A DNA stretch of 64,000 nt from a virus (IMGVR_UViG_3300045988_119023:32471-96470); one strand, 5' to 3'; shown: positions 6,688 to 61,373, counted from the first letter of the stretch. Notes: generated by a model from the letters alone, not told the origin. A program made the numbers and translations.

Positions 6688-6721
6688 AACAATTATTTTA
6701 TTTCTCATATTAATAAAGCGA

Positions 6722-6792
6722 AGCCGGATTTGAGACTCGTTATGCGGATACCGAAGGTTGAAGAACGATATCGAAATAATCCGGCTTTTTTG
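6722..6792 (+). terminator. Structured terminator candidate with a long-range stem.
   Basis: AGCCGGATT ... AATCCGGCT, 9 bp perfect with a 47-nt spacer, followed by TTTTTTG. Confidence 0.4.
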
Positions 6793-6947
6793 TGCGATTT
6801 CGTGAGGGATGGAACTATCATCGCCTTGGTTGGACGGAACAGACCTACGTACTTTCACTGTCCTGACAGGCATGGGCGCCCGTCTCGCCTACTCCCTGCC
6901 TAATTCTCCACTGGCTACCTAATATAACTATTAACGTCACTCCATCA

Positions 6948-11334: not shown

Positions 11335-14300
11335 TGGCTTCACAGTATAGTATTTTAAGGCAATATGCCCCGTATGTTAGTCCTTACAACATAGATCTTG
11401 TTAAGGACGTCATGATGTACAAACAGCAGAAGGTTGATGCTGCTCGTGAAAAGATCTATACCCAGGTAGATTATCTTATGGGTCAAGAGATAGATAAGCC
11501 TGAAGCCCGCGCTTATATGGAAGATAAGATGTCAGGTGTGATTGCTAACATCAATCAAAAATTCAAAGGCGTGGATCTTTCTTCTGATGGTGTTACGAGA
11601 GCTATACAAGGAGAGATCAGTTCGGTGTTAGATGATACGGTCATTAATGCTATTGCCGGTACAAAAGAAGGCAAGAGGGTTATGAAGGAAATAGAATCTA
11701 TAAAACAGAATCATCCTGAACTTTATTCTCCTATTAATGAATGGCATGCTTTGGATCCTTATTACAAATGGAGGTCAGATGGTAAGGCGGGATCAAGGTT
11801 GGGAGGTCTTCATTATTCTCCTTATGTCGATTATACTAAGGAGATAAATAAGCTGGTTAGTGACTTTAGGAAAAACAACGAAGGCAAGAAGATTCAGACA
11901 ACAGAATATGATGTTAAAGGTAATCCTACTGGTGGAATCATAGAAGTCAACGTAGATGAGCTTACTGATTCCCAGATAAGGAATTTTGTGTCTGCTAACT
12001 TATCTGAAAACATGAGGAATCAGATGAGAATAGAAGCATCATACATGGCAGCCACCAATCCAGTGTTCAGTAATCCGGATTTGGTTAGTCAATATATTGG
12101 GTCTTATGTCGAAAGATACGATAGGCACATAGGAGCATTGGAAGCAAAAAAGAAATCAGTAGGGGATAATAAGGATATTATTGATCGTATTGACAGCCAG
12201 ATACAGGAAGCTAAAAATCAGAAAGCAGAAGCCAAGAGGGAGGCAGATATGATAATAGCTTCATCAGATCCGGTAGCGGCTGCTAATTTTGTTGTTACCA
12301 ATAATCTTTTCGATAAGATGACTGATGCATGGAGATACGACAATACAAGTTTTGAAAGGAAGAAAGACGATCTTTATTTTGCAAGGTTGGCAGAGGATAG
12401 GGCTCAGCAAAAGTTTTTGACTGATAATGCCAAGTCTATGGTTGAAATATCATTGGCGAATGAGCAGCTTGCTCAGGCTAAGATTGAAACCGAATACATG
12501 CGTACTTACGGTTCCAAGATGGGCACTGAAAGCTCATCCGGAGGCACAAGAGGAGCAGGCGGTGTAGGAGTGCCGATGGCTCCTATGGACGGGCCTACGG
12601 CTATCAATTCTGGAACGGGTAAGATAGGATCTGTTAATTTGGCTAATATCCCTTATGAACAACTCACATCTTCTTCCACAGAGCGTAGAGCAAATTTATT
12701 GAAATTATATAATTCATTATCTCCTACAGACAGAAGCAATATCGTTGCAGCATCATACGAAGAAGAAAAAACTGACCCAGGATTGTATGCTAATATGACT
12801 CCTGAAGAACGGATATATTCTTATTTAAAAAATAATGGAGGTCAGAAAAACGGATATTTCGGACAAGGAAATAACAGATTGTCTGAAGCTTATGATGCTT
12901 TACTTCTTTCTGATTCTAAGGCAAATGGAGCTGCAAAGGCTATAAATAACATAACTGATTATCAAATAGATAATATAGTTACTAAAAAAAATAAGGATAT
13001 TATCAGGAAAGTTCGTAATGCTAAGTTTATGAAAGGAAATTCTTTTATGAATCTTACCAATACAGATGATAAGGCTGGAGCCTTCCTGCTCGCCACAGCC
13101 ATAACAACTGGTGTATCTGATGCCGTAGGGTTCAGAGAATACATGATGGATCCTTCAAGAGGAATAGATATTCTTAGTGCTATATCTCCGTCATTAGGAG
13201 CTAAGGCGAGTGCCGGCAAGTTGGGGAAAAACATATCTGATGCTATTACAAGCGAGGATAATGGTTCTTCTACTGGTACGTTGGCTCTTATTAATGGAAT
13301 GAAGAAACTGAATGGCGATCCTGATTTTAATATATCTGATTATATGACCATAGATAAGGACGGTGATATAGATCTAAAAGATTATCAGGAAGGGGAGCCA
13401 TTGACTATTACCCAGCTAAGATATGCTGAGAAAAATAGTAGGGTATCTGATATGATAGCGGGTCAGATGCAGGATGAGATAAAAATGTCTGTATCTCCTG
13501 ATCAGATTTCTGATAAGTTATCTCAGTATCATTACCTTGATTCTTACAAAAGATACAATTGGAATGCCGATTCACCGGAAAAGTCTTTACAGAAGGCTCA
13601 GTTTAGAAGATTGTCTGGTTACATGGCAGGAAAGGTAAACAATCTGGATCCTACTGCTATTAATGCCATTAATATGGATGCCGAGATAGATAATGGCACC
13701 GTTAGAAGATTCTTGACTGCTCAAGTAGGTTCCGGTGAAAATTCTTATGTTACAGAAAGGGTTGAGATTACGAATGACGAGCTTCTTAAGGCGGGTATAG
13801 ATCCTTCGGTCGAGGAGCGCAATTATCCGGTAGATGGCTACAAATCAAGTTTTGAAACCTGTGATTTTGTAGATACCGGAAAGAAGGAAGGTTATTCTTA
13901 TGATAAGTATCTTATACGTAATGGCCTTCCTCGTTTGGCTTCTAAGGCTGATGTTAAGAATGATCTTTATGATATAGTAAAGGTTCATGGTTCTTACCTT
14001 AAGCCAGAAGAAATGAATGTTGTTAAAGCCCTTGTTGATAATTTTATTGACATGTCTGATAATATATCAGTTCAGTTGGAGGGAATGGACGATAGGGGTT
14101 CAAGAGAGGTAGCGGTCAATTTCTATGACAAAAGGACTAAAAATTCTAAAAATCCTGCATTGTTGTTCTCGGATTTTGTTCCTTTGGATCCAGGTAATGA
14201 TGAGTATGCGGATTACTGGAATAGCATTCACCAGAAGTGTCCTCAGTACTTCTTTGTAAAATACGTGAAGGAGGCTGTTCAAGAACGTCTTGATCAGATG

Positions 14301-45607: not shown

Positions 45608-46170
45608 TTCTTTTCCTCCTTGTTTAAAGGCATTAACCCTTTTCCGTGTTTGTCATACCACAGCATAGTTATAACATTCCATGCAGCCGCAGCTAAATGG
45701 TGCACGTTCGTCTCTTTATCCATTCTCTCTCCTTTCAGGTATGCCATTATATGTCTGGCAGCCGCAGCACGGTACCGTTCAAAGCCATTGTCAAGATTCT
45801 GCCAATTATTAGGCCCATATTTCTTAGCTCCGGCATGATAGACTTTTACAATGTCCTCAATCTCTTCCATCGGAAGCAAATCCCATCGTAGTTTGTCGTC
45901 AATGATGTCATTTTTCACTGATTTTATTGAAGTACTTTTTTCTGGATCTCCTACAAGAACAAGTTCCATAATATCTGTTTCTATAATAATTGTGTTTCCA
46001 TTGTAACAAACTTCAGCAAACTTGTCATTTTCTTTTATATTTGTTACTGCAACTACTATAGATCCTTTGTACATTATAGTACTTTTATCTATTTTATCAT
46101 CTTTCAATGTACGAAAAATAGATCCTTTTGGATAAAGGATGTTTTTAGTATTATTGTCCATCTTTTCCAT
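45604..46170 (-). CDS. dATP/dGTP pyrophosphohydrolase-like protein (DUF550 family).
   Basis: LRWDLLPMEEIEDIVKVYHAGAKKYGPNNWQNLDNGFERYRAAAARHIMAYLKGERMDKETNVHHLAAAAWNVITML matches the DUF550 pattern R.DL.P...GA.KYG..NW..G......A.RH....GE..D.E....HLAHAA. Confidence 0.6.
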   Translation of the reverse strand: MEKMDNNTKNILYPKGSIFRTLKDDKIDKSTIMYKGSIVVAVTNIKENDKFAEVCYNGNTIIIETDIMELVLVGDPEKSTSIKSVKNDIIDDKLRWDLLPMEEIEDIVKVYHAGAKKYGPNNWQNLDNGFERYRAAAARHIMAYLKGERMDKETNVHHLAAAAWNVITMLWYDKHGKGLMPLNKEEKK

Positions 46171-46219
46171 CGTTTTATCGTTGTTTTAATCAATTAGTAT
46201 AATAATATAGCCCATTATT

Positions 46220-46585
46220 TTATTCTTCGCCTATAAAGCGATCAAATTCTTCTCCGCTCATAACAATGCGGTTAATGATAATTATGCCGTTATTGCTATA
46301 ATTATCACTTTTAACTCCCATATCATCAAGCTCCTTCTTTAAGTCTTCAAATGTGGGACCTTTCTTGTCTTTAAAAAATAAAGTAGCATGCACAACCCTT
46401 CCGTTGTTTAGTTTTACTCTCACGGTATAGAGATATCCTTTTTCTTCTTCATCCTTTTTATTGATACCATCAAGGATGCTATTTATCATATCCTTGTCCT
46501 CACGTGATAGGTTGGATATGGCTATTCTGCCCTTTAATCTAAATATTTCGTTTTCGTTCATGACTTTCTGTTTTATTGTTTTCAA
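46220..46585 (-). CDS. Hypothetical protein.
   Basis: ORF. Confidence 0.4.
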   Translation of the reverse strand: MKTIKQKVMNENEIFRLKGRIAISNLSREDKDMINSILDGINKKDEEEKGYLYTVRVKLNNGRVVHATLFFKDKKGPTFEDLKKELDDMGVKSDNYSNNGIIIINRIVMSGEEFDRFIGEE

Positions 46586-46844
46586 AATATTGTCTTACGG
46601 CTTCTATGGCTTTATCATCATCAAAAGCTTCTTCAAACTCCGTGTAGAACCTATCTCGCTCCATGCAGAATGTGTTTTTCCCTTCCGGTATAGGACGGAA
46701 CACAACCATCCTCTCTTTGTCGTGATTGGTTCCTATTATGTTATTATCTAAGATAATAGAATACCTTCTTGAACTTTTGTTGATAACAACATCATGTTGA
46801 AGACCATACAATTTAAGTATTTCCCTTAATTCATTTGTTTCCAT
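46539..46844 (-). CDS. Hypothetical protein.
   Basis: ORF. Confidence 0.4.
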   Translation of the reverse strand: METNELREILKLYGLQHDVVINKSSRRYSIILDNNIIGTNHDKERMVVFRPIPEGKNTFCMERDRFYTEFEEAFDDDKAIEAVRQYFENNKTESHERKRNI

Positions 46845-47568
46845 TATTTGAAGATTTTATATTTTTAGAAGATACTGCTCCTGATCCCCACTTTTTCTTA
46901 TATATAGCCCCCATCATGTTTATTAAATCAGAAAAAGAAGATATGGTTCCCATTTCTATACAAAATGCAAGATTGGATTGAAGCATTTCAAGTTCTTTTA
47001 ACTGCTCTTGAGTTGCTCTGTTATCTAAAACATATTTATGTTTATTGAATACAATCCAGTTTAACTTATCAGCCATTTCTATATAATCAACATCTTCAAA
47101 TTTTGATACAGACCTTGAAAGAGTATTGTATTTATCCCCTATCTCTATTCTATCCAAAATAAGTTTATCATTTAACCATCCAGTAACTTCTGCATACAGC
47201 ATAGGATTTAATTCTATAGCGACTAATACCCATATGTAGGGATCACACATAACATTTCTGTTTGTTCCTCTTCCTGTAGTCTTATAGGCATTATACCACT
47301 TCATTACTTTTATCAAAGAGTTGTTTTCCACTATATCCATAAACTCTTTCAAGGTTTCACTTTTTATGTATTTCTGTTTTTTAAGAATATAAAATATCCT
47401 TTCTGCACTCTCCTTGTTCGAAAGAATATTTTCTATTCTCTTATCATTCCACCCCATCTCCACTCTTTTTCTTGTATATGCCTCTTGTAATCCAGTTAAT
47501 GACATAAAGGAAGTTTTAATGTCCTGTCTGATTACCACTCCATACAATAACCTGTCTTTAGAAATCAT
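46831..47568 (-). CDS. KilA-N domain protein, paralog of the gene at 3172..3924.
   Basis: NVMCDPYIWVLVAIELNPMLYAEVTGWLND aligns to KWFVNPYFFVMIALELDPEIYAKVILWLTD of the + strand copy. The C-terminal KKKWGSG also matches. Confidence 0.55.
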   Translation of the reverse strand: MISKDRLLYGVVIRQDIKTSFMSLTGLQEAYTRKRVEMGWNDKRIENILSNKESAERIFYILKKQKYIKSETLKEFMDIVENNSLIKVMKWYNAYKTTGRGTNRNVMCDPYIWVLVAIELNPMLYAEVTGWLNDKLILDRIEIGDKYNTLSRSVSKFEDVDYIEMADKLNWIVFNKHKYVLDNRATQEQLKELEMLQSNLAFCIEMGTISSFSDLINMMGAIYKKKWGSGAVSSKNIKSSNNGNK

Positions 47569-47589
47569 AACTTTTAAATTATTTAATAA

Positions 47590-47655
47590 AATACGCTTGT
47601 ATTAAAATTACACGACGTAAAAATATAGATTGTGTAACTTTAATACAAGCGTATT
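47590..47655. repeat. Large palindrome: 17-bp perfect inverted repeat AATACGCTTGTATTAAA/TTTAATACAAGCGTATT, extendable to about 29 bp, with an inner inverted repeat TTACAC/GTGTAA.
   Basis: Seen directly in sequence. Lies in the intergenic gap upstream of the KilA-N gene and downstream of the 47689..48045 gene on the - strand. Confidence 0.7.
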
Positions 47656-47688
47656 GTGTTAAATTTTACTTATAGTGTTTTTATAGAC

Positions 47689-48045
47689 TCACATTATTCC
47701 TTCTAAATTTACTTTTATAGAACCATTTATGGTTTTAATGCTCCCATCTATGGTTGAAATCACATCATCTATATCATTTATAATGCCTTCCATGTCATCA
47801 ACCACCTCCTCCATATCAGTTACAGCCTGATCTGATTCCCAATATCTTTCTGAGTCTTGTAACGATTCTGGTATATTATCTCTCGCCTCAGTCTCTTCAT
47901 CTAAAATCATATCAACATCATCTTTGGCTGAATTTATGTTGTACTTCAACTCCGATAACTTTGATTTGATGTATTCAAAATCTGTTTTATACTTATTTAC
48001 GTTGTTAATAACATCCGATATTTTTTTTCTTCTCTTGTTGTTCAT
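47689..48045 (-). CDS. Hypothetical acidic coiled-coil protein.
   Basis: ORF overlapping the start of the helicase gene. Confidence 0.4.
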   Translation of the reverse strand: MNNKRRKKISDVINNVNKYKTDFEYIKSKLSELKYNINSAKDDVDMILDEETEARDNIPESLQDSERYWESDQAVTDMEEVVDDMEGIINDIDDVISTIDGSIKTINGSIKVNLEGIM

Positions 48046-49466
48046 GCCTTTATCCTATTATAATATTCGATAATCTTTTCTTTCCTGTCTCCTGGTTTTA
48101 CTGCCATATTTTCAGCCAAGAACCTAAAATACGACACCGGTATGTCCTTGAATCTAATTCCTTCATATTTTCCAAACCACATTATTATGCCGTCAAGATC
48201 GTCTTCTCTCCTACCATCTCCATTCACAGATTTAAGCGAGGCTGCCCGGCGAAGGATCTCGTCTTTGGTAATAATATCACCCATCCTTATATTGGATAGA
48301 AGCTGATTGCCGGCAAACATACACCAGCCCTTAGAAGGAAATTGCTCGATTGTCAGGTCTTCTATCCGACCAAAGCGTCTCATGTTGTCGCAGCAATCAA
48401 CTATCAGCGCCTCTTTCTTGTCAGGATGGATGCGGACGGCGCGGCCTAATATTTGGTAATAAGTTGAATATGAGAAAGTTGGTCGACCAAACATCACACA
48501 ATCAAGTTCAGGAAAATCAAATCCGGTAGCAAGCGTTGAATAATTAAAAACCACCTTCAACTTACCTTCTTTGAAATCTGATATAATTTGTTCTCTTTTC
48601 TTTTTGGTTGTTAGCGATGTTACGACACCGGTTATGGCTCCCATCTTGGCATTCATAAACTCTGATATTCTATTACATGATTCGATAGAATCCATGCAAA
48701 CCAAAATGGCTTTACGTTCGTTCATAAGTTGAAGAAGGCGCTTGTAGATAGAGTTGTTTAAGCCATTTCTTACAATACTTTCTTTAATAGATTCGTTGGT
48801 GTATTCAGCTCCGGTACTGTTTAACATCAGAGCCGATTCATCAAACGACCATCGTTCGTACTTAAGTGGACACCAAAACCCTTGAGAGGTTAGTTCTTGT
48901 ATTTGAGTCACATGAACTATTTTCTTGAAGAAATTATGCTCGTCTTTCGTCAGCATATTGAGCTTGCTATAGTTTCCTTCCAGCATGAAACTGTAGGTTC
49001 GGAGGCGGCAGGGAGTGGCGGTGAAGCCCAGCACCTTCGCCTCTGGAAACCCGTTCATAAACTCCATAAATTCAGAACCTTCTTCAGGAGAATATCCTGA
49101 ATGACATTCATCTATCAATAAGGTATCTATCCCTATATCCTTCAACCTCGCTACATCTTTCTTTATGCTCTTTAATGTTGCATAAGTCATAGCCGACAGC
49201 TCCTTTATACCACATGAAGCAGAATATATAGTAGGTTCAGAACCGAATGATACGGCTTTCGCATAATTCTGCTCCAGAATCTCTTTTGAGGGCTGTAATA
49301 CTAATGTCGGTCTATTTATTTCATGTGCTATCTTGGATATCAGAAGGCTCTTTCCACATCCGCATGGGGCTACGATTATGCCAGGCTTCTTAGATCTTCC
49401 TGTAAGAAACTTAAGCCCGGCATCTACTGCCTCTTTTTGGTAAGGTCTAAGTTCAAAGCCCATCAC
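48042..49466 (-). CDS. Superfamily-2 DEAH-type DNA helicase (ResIII-like N-terminus) with a C-terminal DUF3820-like domain.
   Basis: LRPYQKEAV. Walker A: APCGCGKS. Motif II: LLIDECH. Motif III: GFTATPCR. Motif VI: QILGRAVR. C-terminal WFGKYEGIRFKDIPVSYFRFLAEN resembles the DUF3820 / exodeoxyribonuclease X C-terminal domain. Confidence 0.75.
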   Translation of the reverse strand: MMGFELRPYQKEAVDAGLKFLTGRSKKPGIIVAPCGCGKSLLISKIAHEINRPTLVLQPSKEILEQNYAKAVSFGSEPTIYSASCGIKELSAMTYATLKSIKKDVARLKDIGIDTLLIDECHSGYSPEEGSEFMEFMNGFPEAKVLGFTATPCRLRTYSFMLEGNYSKLNMLTKDEHNFFKKIVHVTQIQELTSQGFWCPLKYERWSFDESALMLNSTGAEYTNESIKESIVRNGLNNSIYKRLLQLMNERKAILVCMDSIESCNRISEFMNAKMGAITGVVTSLTTKKKREQIISDFKEGKLKVVFNYSTLATGFDFPELDCVMFGRPTFSYSTYYQILGRAVRIHPDKKEALIVDCCDNMRRFGRIEDLTIEQFPSKGWCMFAGNQLLSNIRMGDIITKDEILRRAASLKSVNGDGRREDDLDGIIMWFGKYEGIRFKDIPVSYFRFLAENMAVKPGDRKEKIIEYYNRIKA

Positions 49467-50335: not shown

Positions 50336-51355
50336 TCATCGTTTTATCTTTTTAGACGGATCCCAATCCGAAGAGAAAGGGCATTCGTTTTTGTTATGTA
50401 ATCCAAAGTCGCAATAATAACACAGTGCTGACGGGCAGGGTAGCTTGTTTTGCGAAACAGGCTGGCTCAGGGTGGCACGCCGCTTGCTATACCTGGCTCC
50501 TTCTGCTCCCTGGATGTACGCTTGAAATGATTTTACACTATTATCTTCAAAATCATACATTTTAGACAAAGTGTCATTTAGCATCTCTATAGATTTTGTT
50601 TTACGTTCCTCATCCACCTTAACCTTTTGGTACTGCCTGGTCCTGGTAAAGAAATAGATGTTCATATCTGGAAGAACTCCACCATATTTTCTATAGATGT
50701 AAAATGAATATATAGGATGCTGTAAATTCGTTTCCAACTTCTTAGAATCAAAAACCTTATTACCTGATTTCCAATCTATGACATAATGGTGAACTACGTT
50801 CTTGCTTTTTATAGCCAGATGAAGGTCTACCGATCCTACTATGTACACATGAGTATGAATTACTCCATTTATGTTAACAGGCTTAGGAAGACGGTACGGC
50901 AGCACAAAATCTTCTTCAACTCCAACTATAGCGCCGTGTCTGATAAGTTTCTCGCAGGGATTAAGATCACTATCAGCTATCATAAACCTATTGCCGTCTT
51001 TTTTGAACAGATCCACAATCCAAGCAAGAAGCTCTCCAGATTGCTTCATGGCTATCATCATATTTTCCGGTGATTGCCAAGGTATGTCTTCTTGGTAAGC
51101 ATAGTAACTTATAGCTTCCCCCAGGTCTTTGCCAGAAGGCTGTCTTCCGTTCTTGAAGAAGTATTCCAGTGTCTTATGAATAACCGTACCATAAGACGTA
51201 GCTTCTTGTTTTTCCGTAGACCTTTTGCCCTCCACGTAAGTTTTATACCATTTCATTGGACAAGTAAGAAACGTATCTATCTGGGAATAAGATATGGCAA
51301 GACGTTTCACACCATTAAACTCCTTATATAGCAAATGCGTTTCCGGGACCATCAT
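50336..51355 (-). CDS. Cas4-like PD-(D/E)xK nuclease with a four-cysteine (Fe-S type) cluster.
   Basis: Motifs: GSVDL, then VIDWKSG, then QHPIYSFY (QxxxY). N-terminal TCPMKWY plus C-terminal CPSALCYYCDF...NECP cysteines. Confidence 0.65.
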   Translation of the reverse strand: MMVPETHLLYKEFNGVKRLAISYSQIDTFLTCPMKWYKTYVEGKRSTEKQEATSYGTVIHKTLEYFFKNGRQPSGKDLGEAISYYAYQEDIPWQSPENMMIAMKQSGELLAWIVDLFKKDGNRFMIADSDLNPCEKLIRHGAIVGVEEDFVLPYRLPKPVNINGVIHTHVYIVGSVDLHLAIKSKNVVHHYVIDWKSGNKVFDSKKLETNLQHPIYSFYIYRKYGGVLPDMNIYFFTRTRQYQKVKVDEERKTKSIEMLNDTLSKMYDFEDNSVKSFQAYIQGAEGARYSKRRATLSQPVSQNKLPCPSALCYYCDFGLHNKNECPFSSDWDPSKKIKR

Positions 51356-51711
51356 AAGTCATTGTCTTTAAATCCTTCCGGGTAATATACGACATACTTC
51401 TTACCGTCTTCTGGTGTCATGGCAAACTGCATGTAGTTATTACGATTACGATGCTTGCCATCCAATCCTCGTTTCCAATACAGGATACCGTCTATATCCA
51501 CATAAGATCGGCCGCGGTCGGCTCTAACCACGTCCGTGTGTAGCAGATACCCGTCGGAAGACACAATCCATACTTTATCCCCTTTGTTTAAATAAGATAT
51601 TCTTTTTCTTACAACAACCTTTTTCTTATTATCCAATACAAATTCCTCATCCGTCATATTCTTCATCCTCCTCTTCTTCTGTTTCAAAATCAATTCCATA
51701 ACACTGATCAT
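51352..51711 (-). CDS. Hypothetical protein.
   Basis: ORF. Confidence 0.4.
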   Translation of the reverse strand: MISVMELILKQKKRRMKNMTDEEFVLDNKKKVVVRKRISYLNKGDKVWIVSSDGYLLHTDVVRADRGRSYVDIDGILYWKRGLDGKHRNRNNYMQFAMTPEDGKKYVVYYPEGFKDNDL

Positions 51712-51895
51712 AATGTCCGGTCAGTTCTTCTGGTTCTAAATCTTGTCCAAAATCCATATTAAAAATATATTAATACATATTAAAAATATATTAATCAATA
51801 AAGCACTAAAAATCACTATTCCTGCTGGCATGAAATCTATAAATGCAGCTTTTGCTTCTTCAATTAGGCCCAAGTGTAACCTTGGGCCATTGTAT

Positions 51896-53596
51896 TTATT
51901 TTTTGTCATCTCCTTTTAACTTCTTTAAAGTATCTGCAATCGGAAGCTGATCAATGACTCCCAATGCCGGAGCGACGGTCTTAACAACATTGTTAAGGAA
52001 ATTACCGGTACTGTTCTGACCGCCGTCAAATACCGTGATATTTCCGAGGTTAATGTGCTCAAATGCCTTAACCTGTTCTCCAGCAATTTCTTTCCACTGA
52101 TTAACCATCTTGTACTGGATGGCTATCTGAGGATTGGATTCTGCTGCTTCCACCATAGCCTTAAATCCCTCTGCTTCTGCCATCAACGACTTTTTCTTAC
52201 CTTCGGCTTCTGCTTCCAACTTCATCTTAATAGCCTTTGCTTCGGCTTCTGCTTTTGCCAAATTGGCTGCTGCTTCAGCGGCAGCCCGGCGTTTAATCTT
52301 TTCTGCTTCAGCATCAGCTTGCAAAATAGCTTCTTGCTTCTGGGTTTCAGCCGGCACAATCTTTTCAGCTCGAAGCGCAGCTTGAACTTTCTCAGCCTTA
52401 GCCTCTTCCACTTCTTTATCAGCAAGCTCTTTTGCCGTTTTTACAGCCGCTTCCGACTTAACCCTCTCTTCTCCAGCCTTCTTTTCTGATTGAGCTTTGA
52501 TAACCTGTAATTCTGATTCTGATATAGCAACCTCTTTCTGGGCATTGTTATAACCCACAGATGCGTTTTTCTCAGCTTCAGCTTTCTTGATCTGAGCTTC
52601 GGAATCTTGGATTGCTATAGCTGCTTGTTTATCAGCCTCAGCCTTATTCTTTCCGACTTCTTCCATTCTTTCAGCCTCAGCTTTGTTTACCTCAAGTTCT
52701 GCCTTAGATCTTGCAATCGCCGATTCTTTGTCAGCCAAAGTCTTTGCAATAACCGCAGCCCTATCTCTATCGGCTTGAGCTACACCGATCTGTTTTTCTT
52801 TATCGGTTAAAGCCAAAGCTACTTCTTTTTCTTTCTTTGTTTCAGCTACTACCGTTTCCTTTTCTTTTTCAGTATAGGCAATTTGAATCTCTTGCTCTTT
52901 TTGGGTATTAGCTACAGCCGTTTCTTTTTCCTTTTGCTGTACAGCAATCTTAATAGCACCCAGCTTTTCCTGTTCTTCGATATTAGCCTGTGCTTCGTTC
53001 AGGGCCTTACTTTCAGCTTCTTTGCCAAGATTCATGATATAGCCGGCTTCGTCTCTGATGTCACTGATGTTGATATTTAGGAGGTAAAGGCCTAACTTAT
53101 TAAGTTCGTTATCAATGTTTTTTCTTGCCTTATCCAAAAACTCATCCCTGTCAGAATTAAGTTTTTCAATCGTCATTTCAGCAATGATCAAACGCATTTG
53201 GCCATAAACGATATCCGTAATAAGATTTTCAGTAGATTCAGTATCCATCCCCAAAAGCCTTTCTGCTGCATTCTGCATAATTTCAGGATTTGTGCTGATT
53301 GCTACTGTAATAGTAGTAGGTACATCCACTCTGATATTTTGAGACGACAAAGCACCGGTGAGCCTACAATCTATTTGCATAGGCTCCATAGACAAAATAT
53401 CATAGCTTTGAATAATAGGCAAGACGAATGCCGCTCCACCATGATATAATTTCGCCGATTTCTTTTCCCCACCTGTCTTACCATAAACGACCAAGACTTG
53501 ATTAGGCTTACATCTACGATACCTTGATAAGACTCCGATGATTGTCAAAATAATCACTACAGCTAAAATAGCTGACACGTACATGATTGTTGTCAT
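51896..53596 (-). CDS. Flotillin-like SPFH/Band-7 protein (FloT/YuaG/YqiK family). Has an N-terminal TM, an SPFH domain and a long Ala/Glu/Lys coiled coil.
   Basis: KPNQVLVVYGKTGG...GGAAFVLPIIQSYDILSMEPMQID and NINISDIRDEAGYIMNLGKEAE align to the FloT SPFH core. C-terminal ITVFDGGQNSTGNFL resembles the FloT C-terminus. Confidence 0.8.
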   Translation of the reverse strand: MTTIMYVSAILAVVIILTIIGVLSRYRRCKPNQVLVVYGKTGGEKKSAKLYHGGAAFVLPIIQSYDILSMEPMQIDCRLTGALSSQNIRVDVPTTITVAISTNPEIMQNAAERLLGMDTESTENLITDIVYGQMRLIIAEMTIEKLNSDRDEFLDKARKNIDNELNKLGLYLLNINISDIRDEAGYIMNLGKEAESKALNEAQANIEEQEKLGAIKIAVQQKEKETAVANTQKEQEIQIAYTEKEKETVVAETKKEKEVALALTDKEKQIGVAQADRDRAAVIAKTLADKESAIARSKAELEVNKAEAERMEEVGKNKAEADKQAAIAIQDSEAQIKKAEAEKNASVGYNNAQKEVAISESELQVIKAQSEKKAGEERVKSEAAVKTAKELADKEVEEAKAEKVQAALRAEKIVPAETQKQEAILQADAEAEKIKRRAAAEAAANLAKAEAEAKAIKMKLEAEAEGKKKSLMAEAEGFKAMVEAAESNPQIAIQYKMVNQWKEIAGEQVKAFEHINLGNITVFDGGQNSTGNFLNNVVKTVAPALGVIDQLPIADTLKKLKGDDKK

Positions 53597-53627
53597 AACT
53601 TTTAAAATTTAATTGTTGATAAAAAAA

Positions 53628-54122
53628 TTAGATACTTAATTCTCCTTCTTCGTATTTTATATTCACCTTGTCACCGTTTTTGTAATTTTTTCCAGACAAG
53701 CACCTCACTCTCATCTGTTCCTGTCTTCCATTTTTAGAAATATTTACCATATAATGATTCTTACCTGATCTAAATACTATCTCCACCTCTCTGCCATTTA
53801 AATCTTCCGAACATTCGTACACCATTTCTTGTTTTAACTTAAGAAGTAACTTATATACGTAAAACAAAACGATAAAGAAAAATGACCCTATTACGACCCC
53901 TACTAAATGGGAACCCGAAAAGTATGTGGTCCAGCTATATCCAAGAATAAAATGTGTTATGCCCTTGAATGATATGATGTCCGACAAAGACATGCTTAAA
54001 TCAGAAGCGCTGTTAATGTCAATATCCGTATCCAGATCAGATCCTAATATCGACAACAAAAACTGTATAACAAAAGCAAATGACGCTATTAAAGCCATGC
54101 ATAAAATTATATCACTTCCCAT
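53628..54122 (-). CDS. NfeD-like membrane protein (YuaF/YqiJ family) with TM helices and a C-terminal OB-fold. It sits immediately upstream of the flotillin gene.
   Basis: Two hydrophobic segments, then GREVEIVFRSGKNHYMVNISKNGRQEQMRVRCLSG...GDKVNIKYEEGE (OB-fold beta-barrel pattern). The pairing with flotillin matches the conserved nfeD-SPFH operon. Confidence 0.65.
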   Translation of the reverse strand: MGSDIILCMALIASFAFVIQFLLSILGSDLDTDIDINSASDLSMSLSDIISFKGITHFILGYSWTTYFSGSHLVGVVIGSFFFIVLFYVYKLLLKLKQEMVYECSEDLNGREVEIVFRSGKNHYMVNISKNGRQEQMRVRCLSGKNYKNGDKVNIKYEEGELSI

Positions 54123-54363
54123 ATCCTTCTGTTATTATTTTGTAAACAAGATCAGTCATTTCTTTGATGGATTCTGTATAATAATCAATAATAACAATAT
54201 TGAATTTTTGTTCCACCATCACATCAAGCTCAACTTTATCAATAGAATCTAATCCAAGTTCTTCAAACGACACATCTTCTTCATGAATCATATCCATTTC
54301 CGAATGAAGAAACTGAGTAATAATCATATCCTCTATGATCTTTCTGATTTCTACTTTTTCCAT
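54112..54363 (-). CDS. Acyl carrier protein-like (83 aa).
   Basis: EELGLDSIDKVELDVMVEQKF matches the ACP phosphopantetheine-attachment motif LGxDSLDxVELVMxxEEEF, including the Ser. Overlaps the nfeD start by 11 nt, so they are co-operonic. Confidence 0.7.
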   Translation of the reverse strand: MEKVEIRKIIEDMIITQFLHSEMDMIHEEDVSFEELGLDSIDKVELDVMVEQKFNIVIIDYYTESIKEMTDLVYKIITEGYGK

Positions 54364-55064
54364 TGCTTTCTAATTTTATTAAATAAATACGTTTTTATGT
54401 TTTTCAACCTCTCTTTGTCTGTTTCCGAACTTCCGGTAAACAAATAATCCGGATTTCCTTTAGCCGGCGGCGTAGGCAATTTAGATACGGCAAACAACCA
54501 ATCCATTTCCTTATTCTTCTTAGACTCCAAATAAGGCTCGGTAGCGATCTTAAATTTTTCAGCTATTAAGTCAAAGAGCTTTGAGTTTTTAAGGTTCATA
54601 TGGACTGAAAAAGCCTGAGAAGGCGGTTTCCATATGAAGTTACATAAGCTCATTGTGTAATCTCCTGACTCTGCTATATAAGATTCTGTTACCTGAAGTA
54701 TGACCTCTTTCTTAAATGAGGTGTTACCCATAAACCAACACAATCTGGATTCCGCTTCTTTTCTGCTGACACCTATGTCTTTTGAATATGATTCGTACAT
54801 TCCTATCATAATCTTCAACGTTTCCAGAACCTCGTCCGTCATTTCCGGTGTCTCTATATAATTCACAAAAGACGTTCCTTTGTTGGTTAATCTCATCACG
54901 CCTGATTTTAATTTCTCAACCAGGCCAAGCTCTATATATCTCCCAGCATCTTCTTCCGGCATGGCTTCGATCATAACCGAATCCTTCTGTCTTATGGCAA
55001 GAAGATTAGCGAGATCATTAGGAGTCATGTCTGATGCTGCAAGTTGTCTGAAATTGATGTACAT
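54351..55064 (-). CDS. Hypothetical protein (237 aa), first gene of the ACP-NfeD-flotillin operon.
   Basis: ORF overlapping the ACP start by 13 nt. Confidence 0.45.
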   Translation of the reverse strand: MYINFRQLAASDMTPNDLANLLAIRQKDSVMIEAMPEEDAGRYIELGLVEKLKSGVMRLTNKGTSFVNYIETPEMTDEVLETLKIMIGMYESYSKDIGVSRKEAESRLCWFMGNTSFKKEVILQVTESYIAESGDYTMSLCNFIWKPPSQAFSVHMNLKNSKLFDLIAEKFKIATEPYLESKKNKEMDWLFAVSKLPTPPAKGNPDYLFTGSSETDKERLKNIKTYLFNKIRKQWKK

Positions 55065-55904: not shown

Positions 55905-57038
55905 TTAATATACTGACTGTTCTTCCTTTACCTCTTGTTCTTGATCTTGATTGTTCGTAACGTCTTCCACAGTATAGAGCTTGGGCGGCGTCGGCGGCTG
56001 GTTGGGGTTCACGAACTTCGTCCCTCCCTCCCCGTACATCCATCCATGCCCCGGCAGGATCTCTGGGTGGATTGTATTAGTAAGCTCTTCCATACTAACT
56101 TGCCTTACCTTCAGTATATGATGAAACACCAGTCCGGCTGTCCTGAATGATGTTTTGTTTTCAGTTTTAAACCGGTCAAGAGTCTGATACCAATCTTTTC
56201 CAAATATCATATACTTATCCAGCCCGTATCTGCGAGGATTATGCAAGCCTATCATTAACGTACATAGTTGTCCCAACGTATCAGATTGGTAAAAATCAGA
56301 AAGACGCGGAGGCTGCTCTTGGGGACTTTTTATCCGTCCTTCTATTTCTCTGTTGAATTGGGATATAATGAGAAAAAATATGTTTTTATACACTAATTTG
56401 GCTTCATTCATTACCGCCACCAAATCATCTATAGCCGACTTAGGATCCAATCCCATTCTTTTTATCAAAGCAATATGATCGACTTTAAATATTATAAGAC
56501 GTTTGTCTTTATGTTTAGTAGCTATATGATACACAGCCGCCTCAAACTCTTTTACCGTACATGGAGCATCAATGTATATTATATTATTTCTGATTTCACC
56601 TTGAAGGATTTCAAACATTCTCGTCTCTTCTATCGTATTAGAATCTTGCCTTCTTAATATTTCAGGAGCCCGCTTTTTCATATCCTGGCTCATTCTGCGA
56701 AGAAGAAGATCTTGAGGATTCATTTCGAACTCGCAATTGACAAGAAAATAATCTTCTGCTTGCGGGTTAATCATCGGATTCATCACATTTTCCAATATCT
56801 TTTGAGCCACATACGATTTACCTACAGATGGCCGGGCTCCTATGGCAATAGCATGCTGAGGGAAAATGCCTCCAAGCAAAGCCTCGTCAATATAATCGTA
56901 TCCGGTTTTAGCGGGGATAAGTTCTCCCCGCCTGTATTTTAAGATATTCTCATACGCCTCTTCCATAACCTGTTTAGAGGTCTTGAATATCCTTCTTATA
57001 TCTATCCTATTTGCTATCTCCTCTTGCATTTTTGTCAC
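55905..57038 (-). CDS. DnaB-family replicative helicase (C-terminal RecA-like ATPase domain only).
   Basis: AIAIGARPSVGKSYVAQKI (DnaB Walker A; compare IIAARPSMGKTA). VNCEFEMNPQDLLLRRMS matches the DnaB SLEMS motif region. Confidence 0.7.
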   Translation of the reverse strand: MTKMQEEIANRIDIRRIFKTSKQVMEEAYENILKYRRGELIPAKTGYDYIDEALLGGIFPQHAIAIGARPSVGKSYVAQKILENVMNPMINPQAEDYFLVNCEFEMNPQDLLLRRMSQDMKKRAPEILRRQDSNTIEETRMFEILQGEIRNNIIYIDAPCTVKEFEAAVYHIATKHKDKRLIIFKVDHIALIKRMGLDPKSAIDDLVAVMNEAKLVYKNIFFLIISQFNREIEGRIKSPQEQPPRLSDFYQSDTLGQLCTLMIGLHNPRRYGLDKYMIFGKDWYQTLDRFKTENKTSFRTAGLVFHHILKVRQVSMEELTNTIHPEILPGHGWMYGEGGTKFVNPNQPPTPPKLYTVEDVTNNQDQEQEVKEEQSVY

Positions 57039-57338: not shown

Positions 57339-57905
57339 CTATTTCAACCTGCCGTAACTCATATCAGGATCACACCAGACATACCCGTCTTTCTCATCAT
57401 GAAGATACTCAGGGCATCCTCTGCATGCGCTACTGCCTGACACTATTTGGTTGTTCTTATTAGGGCACTTATCTCCAGGCTTATGCCATTCTATCCTTGA
57501 GCCTGATCGTTCTTTGTTTGCATGACAGAACTGAAATACTTTTCCCATCGTCTTCTCGCCGAACATACCTATATGTGTGTATTCTTCCGGTATAGAGAGA
57601 AATTCAGATAAATCTTTATACATCCTTTCCTGTTCTTCCGGCGTAGACCACAGTCTGTCAAGTTCGGCATGGACTCTTATTTTAAGAGACCTTAGTGATG
57701 GGCCCGCAAGCCGGCCTTTAGCTTTTCCCTTATTCGGCCCTGATTCATGAACACCGACATAAGCGTTGCATGGTTTACACATCATAACCATCCCTAAGCC
57801 TTTTCTGCTATATATTTTATCGGCATTGACCAACTCGGTTTCTCTTCCGCAATAAGGGCAAATTTCGCCTCTTAAAATCCGTTGTTGCCGCACATTGAGT
57901 TCCAT
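57339..57905 (-). CDS. Hypothetical Cys-rich zinc-finger protein.
   Basis: CPYCG...CKPC at the N-terminus. C-terminal CPNK...CRGCPEY...WCDPD. Confidence 0.45.
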   Translation of the reverse strand: MELNVRQQRILRGEICPYCGRETELVNADKIYSRKGLGMVMMCKPCNAYVGVHESGPNKGKAKGRLAGPSLRSLKIRVHAELDRLWSTPEEQERMYKDLSEFLSIPEEYTHIGMFGEKTMGKVFQFCHANKERSGSRIEWHKPGDKCPNKNNQIVSGSSACRGCPEYLHDEKDGYVWCDPDMSYGRLK

Positions 57906-58484: not shown

Positions 58485-59475
58485 AATATTTTTCTTTTAC
58501 TTTATTATTAATTATCAAATCTGCCACATCATCTCCGTCTCCTACATTTTCAACATTTTGAAGATAGTCCGATACTTTTATCCTTGACTTCATCATCATC
58601 CCATCTATCTTTTTACTCCATGTGTCAAATGCTTGTCCTTTGTCCGGAAAAGCTACAGTCTTTCTATCTTTTAAAACATCTATCACTTCCGGTCTTAAAT
58701 TCTGCAACCCACCGGTAGCTACAAACAACTCATCTGGTTTATTCACGGCGCATATAATAGCCGTCTTTTCTGACTCCACCAAATTAACTACCTTATCCGG
58801 ATACTGGCTTAGAAGATGTTCTCCAAACAGGCATTGTCTAAACAAGAAGTCTCTTGCATGCAACGAGTGATAAAACATGACATGAGGTCGCTCATTGTCA
58901 CCATCTTTTTCCTTCACTCTTTTTACATCAATCTCATTCCCCTGGCTGTCGGTCTTTATGTAAAAATCCATAATCTTGCCGGTTCTACATACAAAGTCCT
59001 TATCTATCTGCCAGAATATACAACACCCCTTCCATCCCCATAAGTCCATTGTTCCGACATGATACCTTCTGAACACATCAGATACCCTTTCTTTCCCCCA
59101 TAGAGACGATAAAAATCTAAATACGGTGTTTCTATCGTCTGGAACTACAGTCCTCTCAAACTCGCTAAAAGGTATGTAATTTACAACGTCAGGATTTACA
59201 GGAGGACGATAAGCTCTTATGCATTTATTTCCTGAAATCCAAAGATCTTTGTCTCCTACATCCTTACCAGTTGGTCGTTTATCATAACCACATGTCCGTT
59301 CATGATCGCATCTTCCAAACTCATTGCCAACAACCTGACCTGTTGCCACATCAATATAAGGGGTGAGGCACCGGCTTTTCCCACAAGCTGGGCAGGTTAG
59401 CTTCAGCCGGCTCCTGCCAGGCCTGCGGTCAAGTTGAAACCGAGGTACGTTTTCGTATTTTCTGAAATCAAGCAT
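58462..59475 (-). CDS. Putative DNA primase (N-terminal zinc finger plus a Toprim-like C-terminal domain).
   Basis: CPACGKSRC...GRCDHERTC zinc-binding segment. LVESEKTAIICAV...ATGG...AFPDKGQAFD resembles the Toprim acidic motifs. Located next to the DnaB-like helicase. Confidence 0.5.
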   Translation of the reverse strand: MLDFRKYENVPRFQLDRRPGRSRLKLTCPACGKSRCLTPYIDVATGQVVGNEFGRCDHERTCGYDKRPTGKDVGDKDLWISGNKCIRAYRPPVNPDVVNYIPFSEFERTVVPDDRNTVFRFLSSLWGKERVSDVFRRYHVGTMDLWGWKGCCIFWQIDKDFVCRTGKIMDFYIKTDSQGNEIDVKRVKEKDGDNERPHVMFYHSLHARDFLFRQCLFGEHLLSQYPDKVVNLVESEKTAIICAVNKPDELFVATGGLQNLRPEVIDVLKDRKTVAFPDKGQAFDTWSKKIDGMMMKSRIKVSDYLQNVENVGDGDDVADLIINNKVKEKYYEPGRLY

Positions 59476-59818
59476 TTTTAACTCCTCTCATTGCTTCTAT
59501 GATTCTATCTGCTATAGTTATAGACCATGACACCACATCCGGTACATATACTCCGCAATCTATTTCACCTTTTCTATTTTGTGCTTTAATAAACTCAATA
59601 GAATAAGCCTTAACAAGATCGAATCTACGTTGCTCCCAGTCTACATCTTTGTTTTCATCATCCACAGGAAGGGTATCGAGATAAAAATTTAAACTCTCAC
59701 TTATCACACTCCCATTATTACCATAGAACTGTATTCTGTCATGGTCGCTTCTTGTAGTTGAGCTACTAAAGGTGATTACGTCTATTATCTCTCCTGTTTT
59801 TCTAATTTTTCTCTTCAT
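59468..59818 (-). CDS. Hypothetical protein.
   Basis: ORF. Confidence 0.4.
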   Translation of the reverse strand: MKRKIRKTGEIIDVITFSSSTTRSDHDRIQFYGNNGSVISESLNFYLDTLPVDDENKDVDWEQRRFDLVKAYSIEFIKAQNRKGEIDCGVYVPDVVSWSITIADRIIEAMRGVKNA

Positions 59819-60048
59819 ACTCTTCTTGTATTTCTGACCAGTATAGGCATTATTGTTTCAACGGTCTTGCCATATTTCTTATGAGATGCAAGTACGCATA
59901 TTGCATATTTATCTCCTATTCTCAAATCTTTCGATAATCTTAATCTCGAACCCCTTTCGATATTAATAAAATAATCACCAAAAGGATTGATATGTATCGG
60001 TTTTACGATTTCCACATAATCTCCTTTAGGAATAACAATATCGCTCAT
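59815..60048 (-). CDS. Hypothetical protein.
   Basis: ORF. Confidence 0.35.
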   Translation of the reverse strand: MSDIVIPKGDYVEIVKPIHINPFGDYFINIERGSRLRLSKDLRIGDKYAICVLASHKKYGKTVETIMPILVRNTRRV

Positions 60049-61373
60049 ATTACGAATCTTTTAGACATTTCCTCTGCAATATCATATACAACAATATGAT
60101 CCTCTTCATTGTACGGCTTATTGATATTCAACACCCCTTTTCTCACTTTGAACTTCTTATCTTTTCTAAGGTGATTCAACATACCTTGTTGGAACACACA
60201 GTCCGCCTTTTCAAGTGCCACACTGTCTTCTGTCCATTCTTTCAGCGTATATCCTTTACTGCTCGTGCTTTTTGGAGAAAAGTTCATAATACGTGCATCA
60301 ATGCCATACCATGCTTTAACCATTCTTCTTTCAGCTTCCAATTGGAATGCATATGATTCCCATATACCTCCCGATTTAAAGTCAAGAATGACCACTTCTT
60401 CCTTCTCCACTTCTCTTACCTCCTTCTTCGGATCACCTTTTTTGAACTGCCCTGTAGCCCTTTGATATACGGCTCCAAAATAACCTTCTTCTTTGTATTT
60501 GAATGTCATTTTAACCATCGCATCAATAGGTGTTGCTACAAGGTAATCCTCTAAAGAAAGGATTCTTTCTATCATCATCGGTTTCACCTTGTAATCAGAA
60601 CAGAATTTGGCAAACTTCATGACCCTGACAATCATATCGTCAAGATCATCTATGCTATTAAAGAACCGATCAAGATTTTTCTTAGATATCTTCAGCTTGC
60701 CTTCTTGCACTGTCTTAACTACAAAGCTTCTATTTAAGACCATATCTCTACCTGTTAGGTACAATCCGTATAAGTAGTGCATGATCGTTCCCTTATCGGC
60801 TTCATACTGCGCTACCTCTTCTGGATTGCGACCAAGCATCTTCATCTCTTGCTTCCATTCCTGAAGTGCTGTCTTATCATCTACATACCCATCTTTGATT
60901 AAAGTTGTTACCGAAGCATATATCTTAGCCGTCCCATCATCCATCTTTCTTACATAAAAACGATTATCGTCTAATGTCAATCTTACGAATTTGGGTGTCT
61001 CAATCTTCTTCAACTCATCACAGATATAAAACGGCTCTAACGTTTCCTGGTTTTCTGTAAACGGATTCGAGTCTTCTTCTCCAGGGTTAGGAGCGGCTTC
61101 CTCCGCCGGAGCTTCCGGTTTCTCTTCCTGGGTCTGCTCTAGCTCAGGCACCGGCTCTTCAACTACTGGAACCTGTCCGCCTCTTTCTGTTATATCTTTA
61201 TTCTTTATCAAAGACATAACTTCCTTTTTCAATTGCTCTGGTGTTTGATTAGGATCTGATACCGACATCACAACATCGTTCATTCTAAACAACGTATTTC
61301 CTTCTCCTTCCACCATAGGTACAAACCCTAAATCTATTAATATTTTAATCTTTTCTTCTATCATACCTATCAA
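60045..61373 (-). CDS. Putative PD-(D/E)xK family nuclease (442 aa) with an acidic Glu/Pro-rich linker.
   Basis: C-terminal PIDAMVKM ... VVILDFKSGG ... YAFQLEAERRM fits the D...(D/E)xK...QxxxY pattern. Weak. Confidence 0.35.
   Translation of the reverse strand: MIGMIEEKIKILIDLGFVPMVEGEGNTLFRMNDVVMSVSDPNQTPEQLKKEVMSLIKNKDITERGGQVPVVEEPVPELEQTQEEKPEAPAEEAAPNPGEEDSNPFTENQETLEPFYICDELKKIETPKFVRLTLDDNRFYVRKMDDGTAKIYASVTTLIKDGYVDDKTALQEWKQEMKMLGRNPEEVAQYEADKGTIMHYLYGLYLTGRDMVLNRSFVVKTVQEGKLKISKKNLDRFFNSIDDLDDMIVRVMKFAKFCSDYKVKPMMIERILSLEDYLVATPIDAMVKMTFKYKEEGYFGAVYQRATGQFKKGDPKKEVREVEKEEVVILDFKSGGIWESYAFQLEAERRMVKAWYGIDARIMNFSPKSTSSKGYTLKEWTEDSVALEKADCVFQQGMLNHLRKDKKFKVRKGVLNINKPYNEEDHIVVYDIAEEMSKRFVI

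Follow-up and report, generated by a model that had tools for sequence, protein, structure and literature searches.

Operons that pair a flotillin with a membrane protein of the NfeD family are nearly universal in bacteria, and their physiological role is still debated. In the yuaF(nfeD2)-floT operon of Bacillus subtilis and the yqiJ-yqiK operon of Escherichia coli, a short NfeD protein is encoded together with a flotillin of the FloT/YqiK type. The FloA flotillin of Staphylococcus aureus, an SPFH scaffold, and its NfeD partner are likewise encoded in one operon and assemble into a complex with the shape of a clamp, which keeps unfolded membrane proteins stable without ATP, with NfeD binding and stabilising the flotillin oligomer (PMC11222466). 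SPFH genes have been noted only sporadically in phages, as in Gibbsiella phage GIB1, which carries an SPFH lipoprotein (PMC13239085), and Vibrio phage KIT04, which has a gene annotated 'flotillin family protein'. Here we analyse a stretch of viral DNA of 64,000 nucleotides (nt; IMGVR_UViG_3300045988_119023:32471-96470, hereafter the window) in which four minus-strand open reading frames (ORFs) encode, in order, a protein of 237 amino acids (aa), an acyl carrier protein (ACP), a 164-aa NfeD-like membrane protein and a flotillin. The evidence presented below indicates that the last two genes are a pair probably captured as an operon from a Bacteroidales host, that they occupy a variable cargo slot of the phage genome, and that they appear to be neighbors of the ACP gene rather than its functional partners.

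All four ORFs of this cassette were recovered exactly where an earlier note, made from the sequence alone, had placed them. Phage csAssE-Sib (OR575929.1), a 151-kb phage from the human gut, shares ~94% identity with the region, and its record labels the four genes as hypothetical protein, acyl carrier protein, transmembrane protein and flotillin family protein, and IMG also names the phage protein 'flotillin'. The presence of a flotillin and an ACP was hence already on record in GenBank; what is added here is the reading of the partner as NfeD-like, the capture of a Bacteroidales operon, the cargo slot, the deletion and length variants, and the decoupling of the pair from the ACP. Going by the deposited annotation of csAssE-Sib, which includes ring and muzzle structural proteins and Bacteroidetes-associated carbohydrate-binding proteins, and not by phylogeny, the source is a ~150-kb crAss-like human-gut phage, and its host is most likely a member of the Bacteroidales. 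No paper in the literature searched mentions csAssE-Sib, or flotillin together with crAss-like phages. The proposed check of conservation across related phages found the cassette in 165 IMG/VR contigs, in one deposited complete genome, that of csAssE-Sib, and in many ENA and Logan assemblies. Since the ORFs recur in this way in the IMG/VR contigs and the deposited genome, and strong purifying selection acts on three of them, they are not chance frames.

Profile searches on the flotillin returned both Band_7 (PF01145; 90 bits against a cut-off of 23.6, E 2.5e-25) and Flot (PF15975; 38.3 bits against a cut-off of 27, E 1.6e-9) above their Pfam cut-offs. Direct reading of the translation revealed a hydrophobic N-terminal anchor at aa 5-24 (MYVSAILAVVIILTIIGVLS) and, between the two domains, an EA/K-rich putative coiled coil, in agreement with the initial description of the protein as a full-length flotillin. 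The NCBIfam FloT model (NF058507) also matches (3.6e-43), but its 148 bits lie far under the equivalog cut-off of 700, so that the phage protein is a member of the flotillin family and not a FloT ortholog. This sets the locus apart from the B. subtilis and E. coli operons, as does the failure of the Pfam NfeD model to match the phage partner. The S. aureus system differs further in that FloA is a flotillin of the short type from a Gram-positive species, whereas the pair of the phage and the Bacteroidales is of the FloT/YqiK type and is known here from sequence. The SPFH proteins of KIT04 and GIB1 are 26-30% identical to the phage flotillin over part of the protein, and neither an NfeD partner nor a host-operon origin has been reported for them. 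Two further papers considered as precedents were set aside, as the Perkons phage paper concerns integration into the host floA gene, not a phage flotillin, and the marine structural-variant paper concerns a bacterial flotillin-associated rhodopsin.

The regions of the flotillin have diverged unevenly. The anchor and SPFH portion (aa 1-211) is 77% identical to the flotillin of Bacteroides xylanisolvens and the C-terminal portion (aa 450-566) 77% identical to Bacteroides, but the coiled coil only 56%, and relative to Bacteroides the latter contains insertions of 22 and 11 aa. The coiled coil is also polymorphic in length among phages: one related locus (L090, 6001-7446) carries an 85-aa in-frame deletion in it, and flotillin variants in the databases range from 408 to 595 aa, with 86-99% identity over the aligned part. 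A tandem-repeat finder detected no strong DNA repeat beneath this polymorphism, the only candidate being a weak 27-nt repeat of 2.1 copies.

The identity of the 164-aa partner is less direct. No NfeD match was obtained for it in Pfam (PF01957, E up to 0.1), NCBIfam, PHROG or PADLOC, nor in Pfam searches (E up to 1) with its ortholog from the related phage L091 and three Bacteroidales orthologs. An exhaustive profile search for the family yielded 407 cluster representatives, most of the full-length ones being 160-180 aa long, and two of 54 distant family members do reach PF01957 (best E 6e-5). The predicted model of the protein comprises three putative transmembrane helices at aa 2-25, 52-69 and 72-102, segments that are also hydrophobic in alignments, an acidic DxDxDxD loop and, at aa ~110-164, a predicted five- or six-stranded C-terminal OB-type beta-barrel resembling the solved soluble domains of NfeD proteins. 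Bacterial orthologs bear the UniRef/IMG names 'NfeD-like C-terminal domain-containing protein' and 'membrane protein implicated in regulation of membrane protease activity', and the gene lies directly upstream of the flotillin gene in the phage as in 79 of 80 bacterial loci. A profile of the whole family against PDB sequences returned only transmembrane-helix noise. A profile of the C-terminal domain picked up no NfeD entry; its summed matches, to designed beta-propeller repeats ('Bagel', 'Cake'), were spurious, and it was rejected as uninformative. The predicted fold, the two family members that reach PF01957 and the operon context therefore point to a protein with short-NfeD architecture and setting, which upholds the NfeD reading at the level of fold and context, while no profile recognises the protein itself. 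With only 164 aa and no match to the ClpP-class serine protease domain of the long form, it would, if an NfeD, have to be one of the short class.

A motif scan of 185,579 species genomes with a tighter alignment of the 164-aa family returned 80 bacterial loci, mostly in Bacteroides, Phocaeicola, Parabacteroides, Prevotella and other Bacteroidales. A flotillin gene begins ~40 bp downstream of the NfeD-like gene in 79 of them, which confirms that the pairing is a conserved bacterial operon; an ACP or 237-aa homolog was found within 4 kb in none of the 80. In B. xylanisolvens XB1A (L055, 4001-6171) the pair stands alone between a divergent pseudouridine synthase gene (truA) and an AAA ATPase gene. 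Gene order, spacing (~40 bp) and the lengths of the two proteins (164-165 aa and ~540 aa) are as in the phage, and the NfeD-like proteins share the QF(I/L)LS...DxDxDxD...SFKGxxHF motifs with that of the phage. The two versions differ in their setting, a phage replication block against truA and the AAA ATPase gene, in the additional 22-aa and 11-aa segments of the phage coiled coil, and in their ends: the B. xylanisolvens pair closes with an ordinary intrinsic terminator, a hairpin followed by a T-run, while the phage version continues into a small membrane ORF and a different hairpin.

Full-length tblastn comparisons placed the phage flotillin at 64-66% identity to the flotillins of Bacteroides, Phocaeicola and Parabacteroides, and at 39-46% to those of more distant taxa. 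Neighbor-joining trees of the NfeD-like protein and of the flotillin are congruent, and in both the copies from the window, L090 and L091 make up a monophyletic phage group of their own outside the sampled genera, with a Bacteroides/Phocaeicola/Parabacteroides/Prevotella clade as its sister. The bacterial flotillins of the sister clade share 84-99% identity with one another and 68-73% with those of the phages; for the NfeD-like protein, identity between phage and bacterial copies amounts to 32-40% (tblastn) or 33-44% (MAFFT alignment). Since the phage copies of both genes form one clade in congruent trees, the simplest reading of these sequences is that the two-gene operon was taken intact from a Bacteroidales host on a single occasion and has since diverged within the phage lineage. 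A widespread human-gut phage would in this way be keeping a complete, selected copy of the operon, ~30% diverged from those of its hosts.

Comparison with related phages delimited the segment in which the pair resides. In eight loci (L005, L006, L090, L091, L172, L252, L253 and L254) a PD-(D/E)XK nuclease gene lies downstream of the 237-aa gene, parted from it only by a stretch of variable content. In the window, L090 and L091 this stretch holds the ACP, NfeD-like and flotillin genes and a ~50-aa ORF, followed by one to three small ORFs (in the window, a 119-aa gene); in L005 and L006 it contains an ACP gene, a DNA methylase gene, two small ORFs and genes for two radical-SAM enzymes; in L252 and L253 it is occupied by two unrelated small ORFs, and in L254 it is empty. 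Because its contents vary among relatives, the region between the conserved 237-aa gene and the nuclease gene is a cargo slot, and it constitutes a hotspot that can be mined for other accessory genes of this phage family. With a DnaB-like helicase gene upstream and the nuclease gene downstream, the setting of the cassette is that of a replication module, as first suggested. It lies within a minus-strand block of ~23 kb that extends from ~41 kb, at a switch in GC skew, to the window end.

The content of the slot also varies within a single phage species. A viral-contig scan with the 237-aa family as its anchor yielded near-identical genomes only, and these supplied the loci for a census of deletions. 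Among 78 informative IMG/VR loci in which the 237-aa protein is at least 98% identical, the cassette is intact in 59, the NfeD-like gene is intact and the flotillin gene and small ORF are absent in 16 (L174, L176, L182, L187 and others), and partial versions are present in the remaining three; the ACP gene is kept in all 78. In L174, where the NfeD-like gene runs directly to the 119-aa gene, the deletion spans ~1.85 kb between blastn junctions at window positions ~53625 and ~51774, joined at a short A/T-rich microhomology. L172, P0027 and P0031 carry independent fusions in which the first ~85 aa of the NfeD-like protein continue in frame into the last ~70 aa of the flotillin, and both these fusions and the flotillin-only deletions leave the ACP gene intact. 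The flotillin is therefore subject to presence/absence polymorphism within one phage species, and the circulating flotillin-minus and coiled-coil-length variants amount to a natural experiment on the part played by an SPFH scaffold in the infection of Bacteroidales.

Ratios of nonsynonymous to synonymous substitution rates (dN/dS) between the window and csAssE-Sib are 0.046 for the flotillin gene, 0.044 for the NfeD-like gene and 0.017 for the 237-aa gene; against the more distant L091 they are 0.067 for the flotillin gene and 0.047 for the 237-aa gene. With dN/dS of ~0.05, the flotillin and NfeD-like genes behave as a working gene pair. The explanation that best accommodates these observations overall, and which we hold with middling confidence, is that the captured Bacteroidales pair serves as an accessory membrane scaffold, uncoupled from the ACP and carried in the cargo slot; it builds on the results above concerning gene identity, origin from the host, the structure of the slot, dispensability and selection. 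The 237-aa gene is a conserved backbone gene, and the orphan ACP gene would be the first, older occupant of the slot beside it; the NfeD-like and flotillin genes would have been captured once as a unit, and the small phage-specific membrane ORF added after them. Probably expressed together with the replication genes, the flotillin would anchor in the host inner membrane via its N-terminal helix and SPFH domain and oligomerise via its coiled coil, while the OB domain of the NfeD-like protein, by analogy with the S. aureus complex, might bind and stabilise the assembly. The pair could then act as an extra ATP-independent SPFH scaffold or holdase, keeping membrane proteins and membrane integrity functional under infection stress and prolonging productive infection, and it would be an accessory, moron-type element, beneficial enough to experience purifying selection and yet dispensable.

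Several points weigh against this explanation. The physiological benefit is argued purely by analogy with bacterial homologs, and the precedent is of the FloA type and from a Gram-positive species, while the phage protein is of the FloT/YqiK type and the presumed host belongs to the Bacteroidales. That host presumably has its own copy of the operon, which leaves the need for supplementation less than obvious. The flotillin is often lost (~20% of near-identical genomes), which implies that any benefit is conditional. The count of 16 in 78 may contain non-independent contigs, as most come from one IMG/VR data set. Finally, the explanation accounts neither for the role of the ACP nor for the high dN/dS (0.8) of its gene.

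The presence of the same operon in the presumed host lineage also lends itself to an interference reading, which we consider unlikely. The phage flotillin, ~69% identical to that of the host, could co-assemble with the host flotillin and NfeD or displace them, re-purposing or poisoning host membrane microdomains, for instance by altering FtsH-type proteolysis, secretion or envelope-stress signalling. The greater distance of both phage proteins from the bacterial copies than of these from one another would be consistent with such an activity, as would the lineage-specific insertions and length polymorphism of the phage coiled coil. Conservation of the SPFH and Flot domains and purifying selection are, on the other hand, what a working scaffold would exhibit, and the phage brings its own NfeD-like partner, suggesting a self-contained assembly.

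Residence in a strain-variable slot, where the alternative contents include a DNA methylase and radical-SAM enzymes, together with presence/absence polymorphism within one species, raises the question of a function in conflict, since both patterns are common for defence and anti-defence cargo. The pair might mediate superinfection exclusion, or act in counter-defence by stabilising the membrane against membrane-disrupting abortive-infection effectors, a proposal that we likewise regard as rather improbable. PADLOC models returned nothing meaningful for the four proteins, the only match being a marginal one of the 237-aa protein to LmuC (E = 0.01), the literature searched documents no flotillin acting as an exclusion or anti-defence factor, and the two proteins are close copies of a housekeeping host operon. 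A more specific version, which we put forward as decidedly speculative, is that the pair constitutes a membrane-protective device for counter-defence or for prolonging infection, in which SPFH cages encoded by the phage protect the inner membrane against membrane-disrupting abortive-infection effectors or keep it from collapsing prematurely. Coiled-coil length would then tune the geometry of the cage, and presence or absence of the flotillin would track the defence repertoire of the host strain. If true, this would represent a new class of phage anti-defence or host-maintenance function, in an abundant human-gut phage.

The ACP gene, which shares the slot with the pair, has a different history. 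Its product matches PP-binding (PF00550) marginally (7.6e-5, 23.3 bits against a cut-off of 20.8) and phrog_5934 'acyl carrier protein' at 5.1e-8, and carries Ser40 in an LGLDSID motif, in line with the original assignment; the ACP models of NCBIfam/TIGR00517 score ~29 bits against cut-offs of 70-92. As judged from these matches, it is an ACP-like protein with the attachment serine and not an AcpP ortholog. Over 153 related phage loci, in which the 237-aa protein is 98-100% identical, the ACP ranges from 63 to 100% identity to the window copy (median 81%), while Ser40 is kept in at least 149, and dN/dS between the window and csAssE-Sib reaches 0.80. The ACP gene is accordingly a hotspot of microdiversity, the cause of which could be diversifying selection, relaxed constraint or recombination. 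Like the phage ACPs of PHROG 5934, a family in the moron/auxiliary metabolic gene category, it is 83 aa long, matches PP-binding and has a DS(L/I) serine motif; it differs from them in its fast evolution, in lacking an associated phosphopantetheinyl transferase (PPTase) or acyl-ACP enzyme, and in that the serine is replaced by Asp in a sister clade.

The earlier note had suggested looking elsewhere in the genome for a PPTase or an enzyme that uses acyl-ACP. None was found: no PPTase, ketosynthase, acyltransferase or adenylating enzyme was identified among 70 unannotated non-structural ORFs from the window and the rest of csAssE-Sib, for which the complete list of matches comprised only 12 families, and the deposited annotation of csAssE-Sib, through which alone the ORFs of the structural module were checked, contains no PPTase or acyl-ACP enzyme. 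The ACP, if modified at all, must rely on the AcpS of the host. The 237-aa protein, considered as an Sfp-type PPTase on account of its size and its position beside the ACP, was ruled out, as it has no ACPS match and its predicted fold is a winged helix with an alpha domain. In the sister clade, the ACP homolog (6675-6938 in both L005 and L006; PP-binding 3.7e-8) reads LGFDDLD, with Asp replacing the attachment serine, and precedes the DNA methylase and the two radical-SAM enzymes; it may represent a 'pseudo-ACP' that does not act as a carrier, or belong to a DNA-modification cassette.

The earlier note had described the nfeD-flotillin pair as fused into an operon with the ACP, and tight, overlapping, co-directional packing, a gene order kept in phages with 83% and 96% identical flotillins, and the conserved serine of the ACP would all be compatible with a single functional operon whose ACP provides a lipid-linked or acyl modification tied to the flotillin and NfeD-like proteins. 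Of the four genes described as overlapping, the first three do so (by 13 nt between the 237-aa and ACP genes, and by 11 nt between the ACP and NfeD-like genes), but the NfeD-like and flotillin genes are separated by a 31-nt gap, and tight co-directional packing with overlapping genes is the norm across the whole minus-strand block. The ACP gene occurs in sister phages without the flotillin, it stays in the ~20% of near-identical genomes that have lost the flotillin alone, no ACP gene lies within 4 kb of the bacterial source operon (0/80), no enzyme that would load or use the ACP was encountered in the 70-ORF scan, and the evolutionary rates of ACP and flotillin are very different. On this evidence the apparent operon of ACP and flotillin is best taken as adjacency, and a functional fusion, attractive as it seemed, is highly unlikely.

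The recurrent deletions and in-frame fusions could alternatively mark the pair as neutral, hitch-hiking cargo without function in the phage and heading for loss. The dN/dS of ~0.05 for both genes makes this scarcely credible, as do the frames that remain intact in 59 of the 78 near-identical genomes and in phages with 83% (flotillin) and 62% (NfeD-like) identity. A chimeric assembly, with host DNA mis-joined to a phage contig, which the earlier note had named as an outcome that would overturn its reading, has only the host-like identity of the two genes in its favor and can be dismissed, because csAssE-Sib, the 165 IMG/VR contigs and the many ENA and Logan assemblies share these junctions, with phage genes to either side, and the phage flotillin is just 64-66% identical to any bacterial copy.

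The 237-aa protein that borders the slot has no match in Pfam, PHROGs or NCBIfam. Its predicted fold combines an N-terminal MarR-like winged helix (~85 aa) with an all-alpha C-terminal domain of ~150 aa that has no strong structural match. Since no MarR sequence profile matches and the C-terminal domain differs from the MarR dimerisation helices, the model argues for a winged-helix protein outside the MarR family. Its homologs define the phage family, down to 36% identity, and are always encoded downstream of DnaB.

At the distal end of the pair, a 57-aa ORF overlaps the flotillin stop codon by 14 nt, and ORFs of 50-52 aa are called at the same position in L090 and L091. This ORF is phage-specific, as bacterial loci hold the terminator or unrelated sequence at this point, and it is lost along with the flotillin in the deletion variants. 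The GC-rich hairpin located within it has no U-tract on the coding strand; in L091 (~7713-7734) a compensatory change in one pair (GGCCCAGG...CCTGGGCC) preserves its stem, and the loop is different. A scan for promoters and terminators revealed no enrichment over shuffled sequences, and does not model Bacteroidales promoters. The features of the locus are collected in Table 1.

Table 1. Features of the flotillin cassette and its surroundings, numbered from the first nucleotide of the window.
Feature	Position	Strand	Remarks
DnaB-like replicative helicase, backbone	55905..57038	-	DnaB_C 1.4e-16, phrog_37407 2.7e-40; upstream of cassette
237-aa winged-helix backbone protein (fold predicted)	54351..55064	-	Upstream border of cargo slot
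ACP-like gene, 83 aa, LGLDS(40)ID	54112..54363	-	First gene of slot; Ser40 codon 54244-54246
Short NfeD-like membrane protein, 164 aa	53628..54122	-	Operon partner of flotillin
Flotillin (FloT/YqiK-like), 566 aa	51896..53596	-	Band_7 and Flot matches
SPFH/Band_7 domain of flotillin, aa 30-211	52964..53509	-	Pfam
Putative coiled-coil region of flotillin, aa 212-449	52250..52963	-	Length-polymorphic
C-terminal Flot domain of flotillin, aa 450-559	51920..52249	-	Pfam
57-aa ORF, hydrophobic C-terminal helix	51736..51909	-	Overlaps flotillin stop codon
GC-rich hairpin (GGCCCAAGGTTACACTTGGGCC)	51867..51888	-	Begins 8 nt past flotillin stop, within 57-aa ORF
Interval absent from flotillin-minus variants	51775..53625 (approximate)	-	blastn junctions in L174
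119-aa small gene	51352-51711	-	Directly before PD-(D/E)XK nuclease
PD-(D/E)XK nuclease, backbone	50336..51355	-	PDDEXK_1 1.6e-20; downstream border of slot

Several other genes of the window and its relatives merit mention. The ResIII/Helicase_C helicase encoded downstream carries Hom_end_hint, LAGLIDADG or Intein_splicing domains in L006 (12288-end), L008 (6142-8571), L172 (7882-10335) and L252 (8014-9837); these intein- or homing-endonuclease-bearing versions measure from 607 to more than 800 aa, while the window copy (48042-49466) is uninterrupted, at 474 aa. Genes for TnpB/IS605 OrfB (Cas12f-like) proteins were found in L006 (1592-2812, minus strand), L091 (13180-end), L253 (9792-end) and csAssE-Sib (58986-60125 and 64190-65413), and their differing insertion positions suggest that IS200/IS605-type elements are active in this phage family. 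In csAssE-Sib, outside the window, positions 45751-47816 are annotated as a diversity-generating retroelement, with variable repeat (VR), template repeat (TR), initiation of mutagenic homing (IMH) element and reverse transcriptase, whose target is a putative tail-fibre gene.

One of the 70 ORFs scanned for ACP-related enzymes matches Tad2-like proteins (Thoeris anti-defence 2) at 1.4e-17, and most likely corresponds to the csAssE-Sib gene at 13792-14061 (L002, outside the window), annotated DUF2829; a Tad2-like gene is also located near DnaB in the relative L253 (3643-3954). Upstream of DnaB in the window, positions 57339-57905 encode a 188-aa zinc-finger protein with a DUF3268 match (6e-27) and a weak match to the restriction-alleviation protein Lar (8e-4), and this gene is conserved upstream of DnaB in most of the relatives examined.

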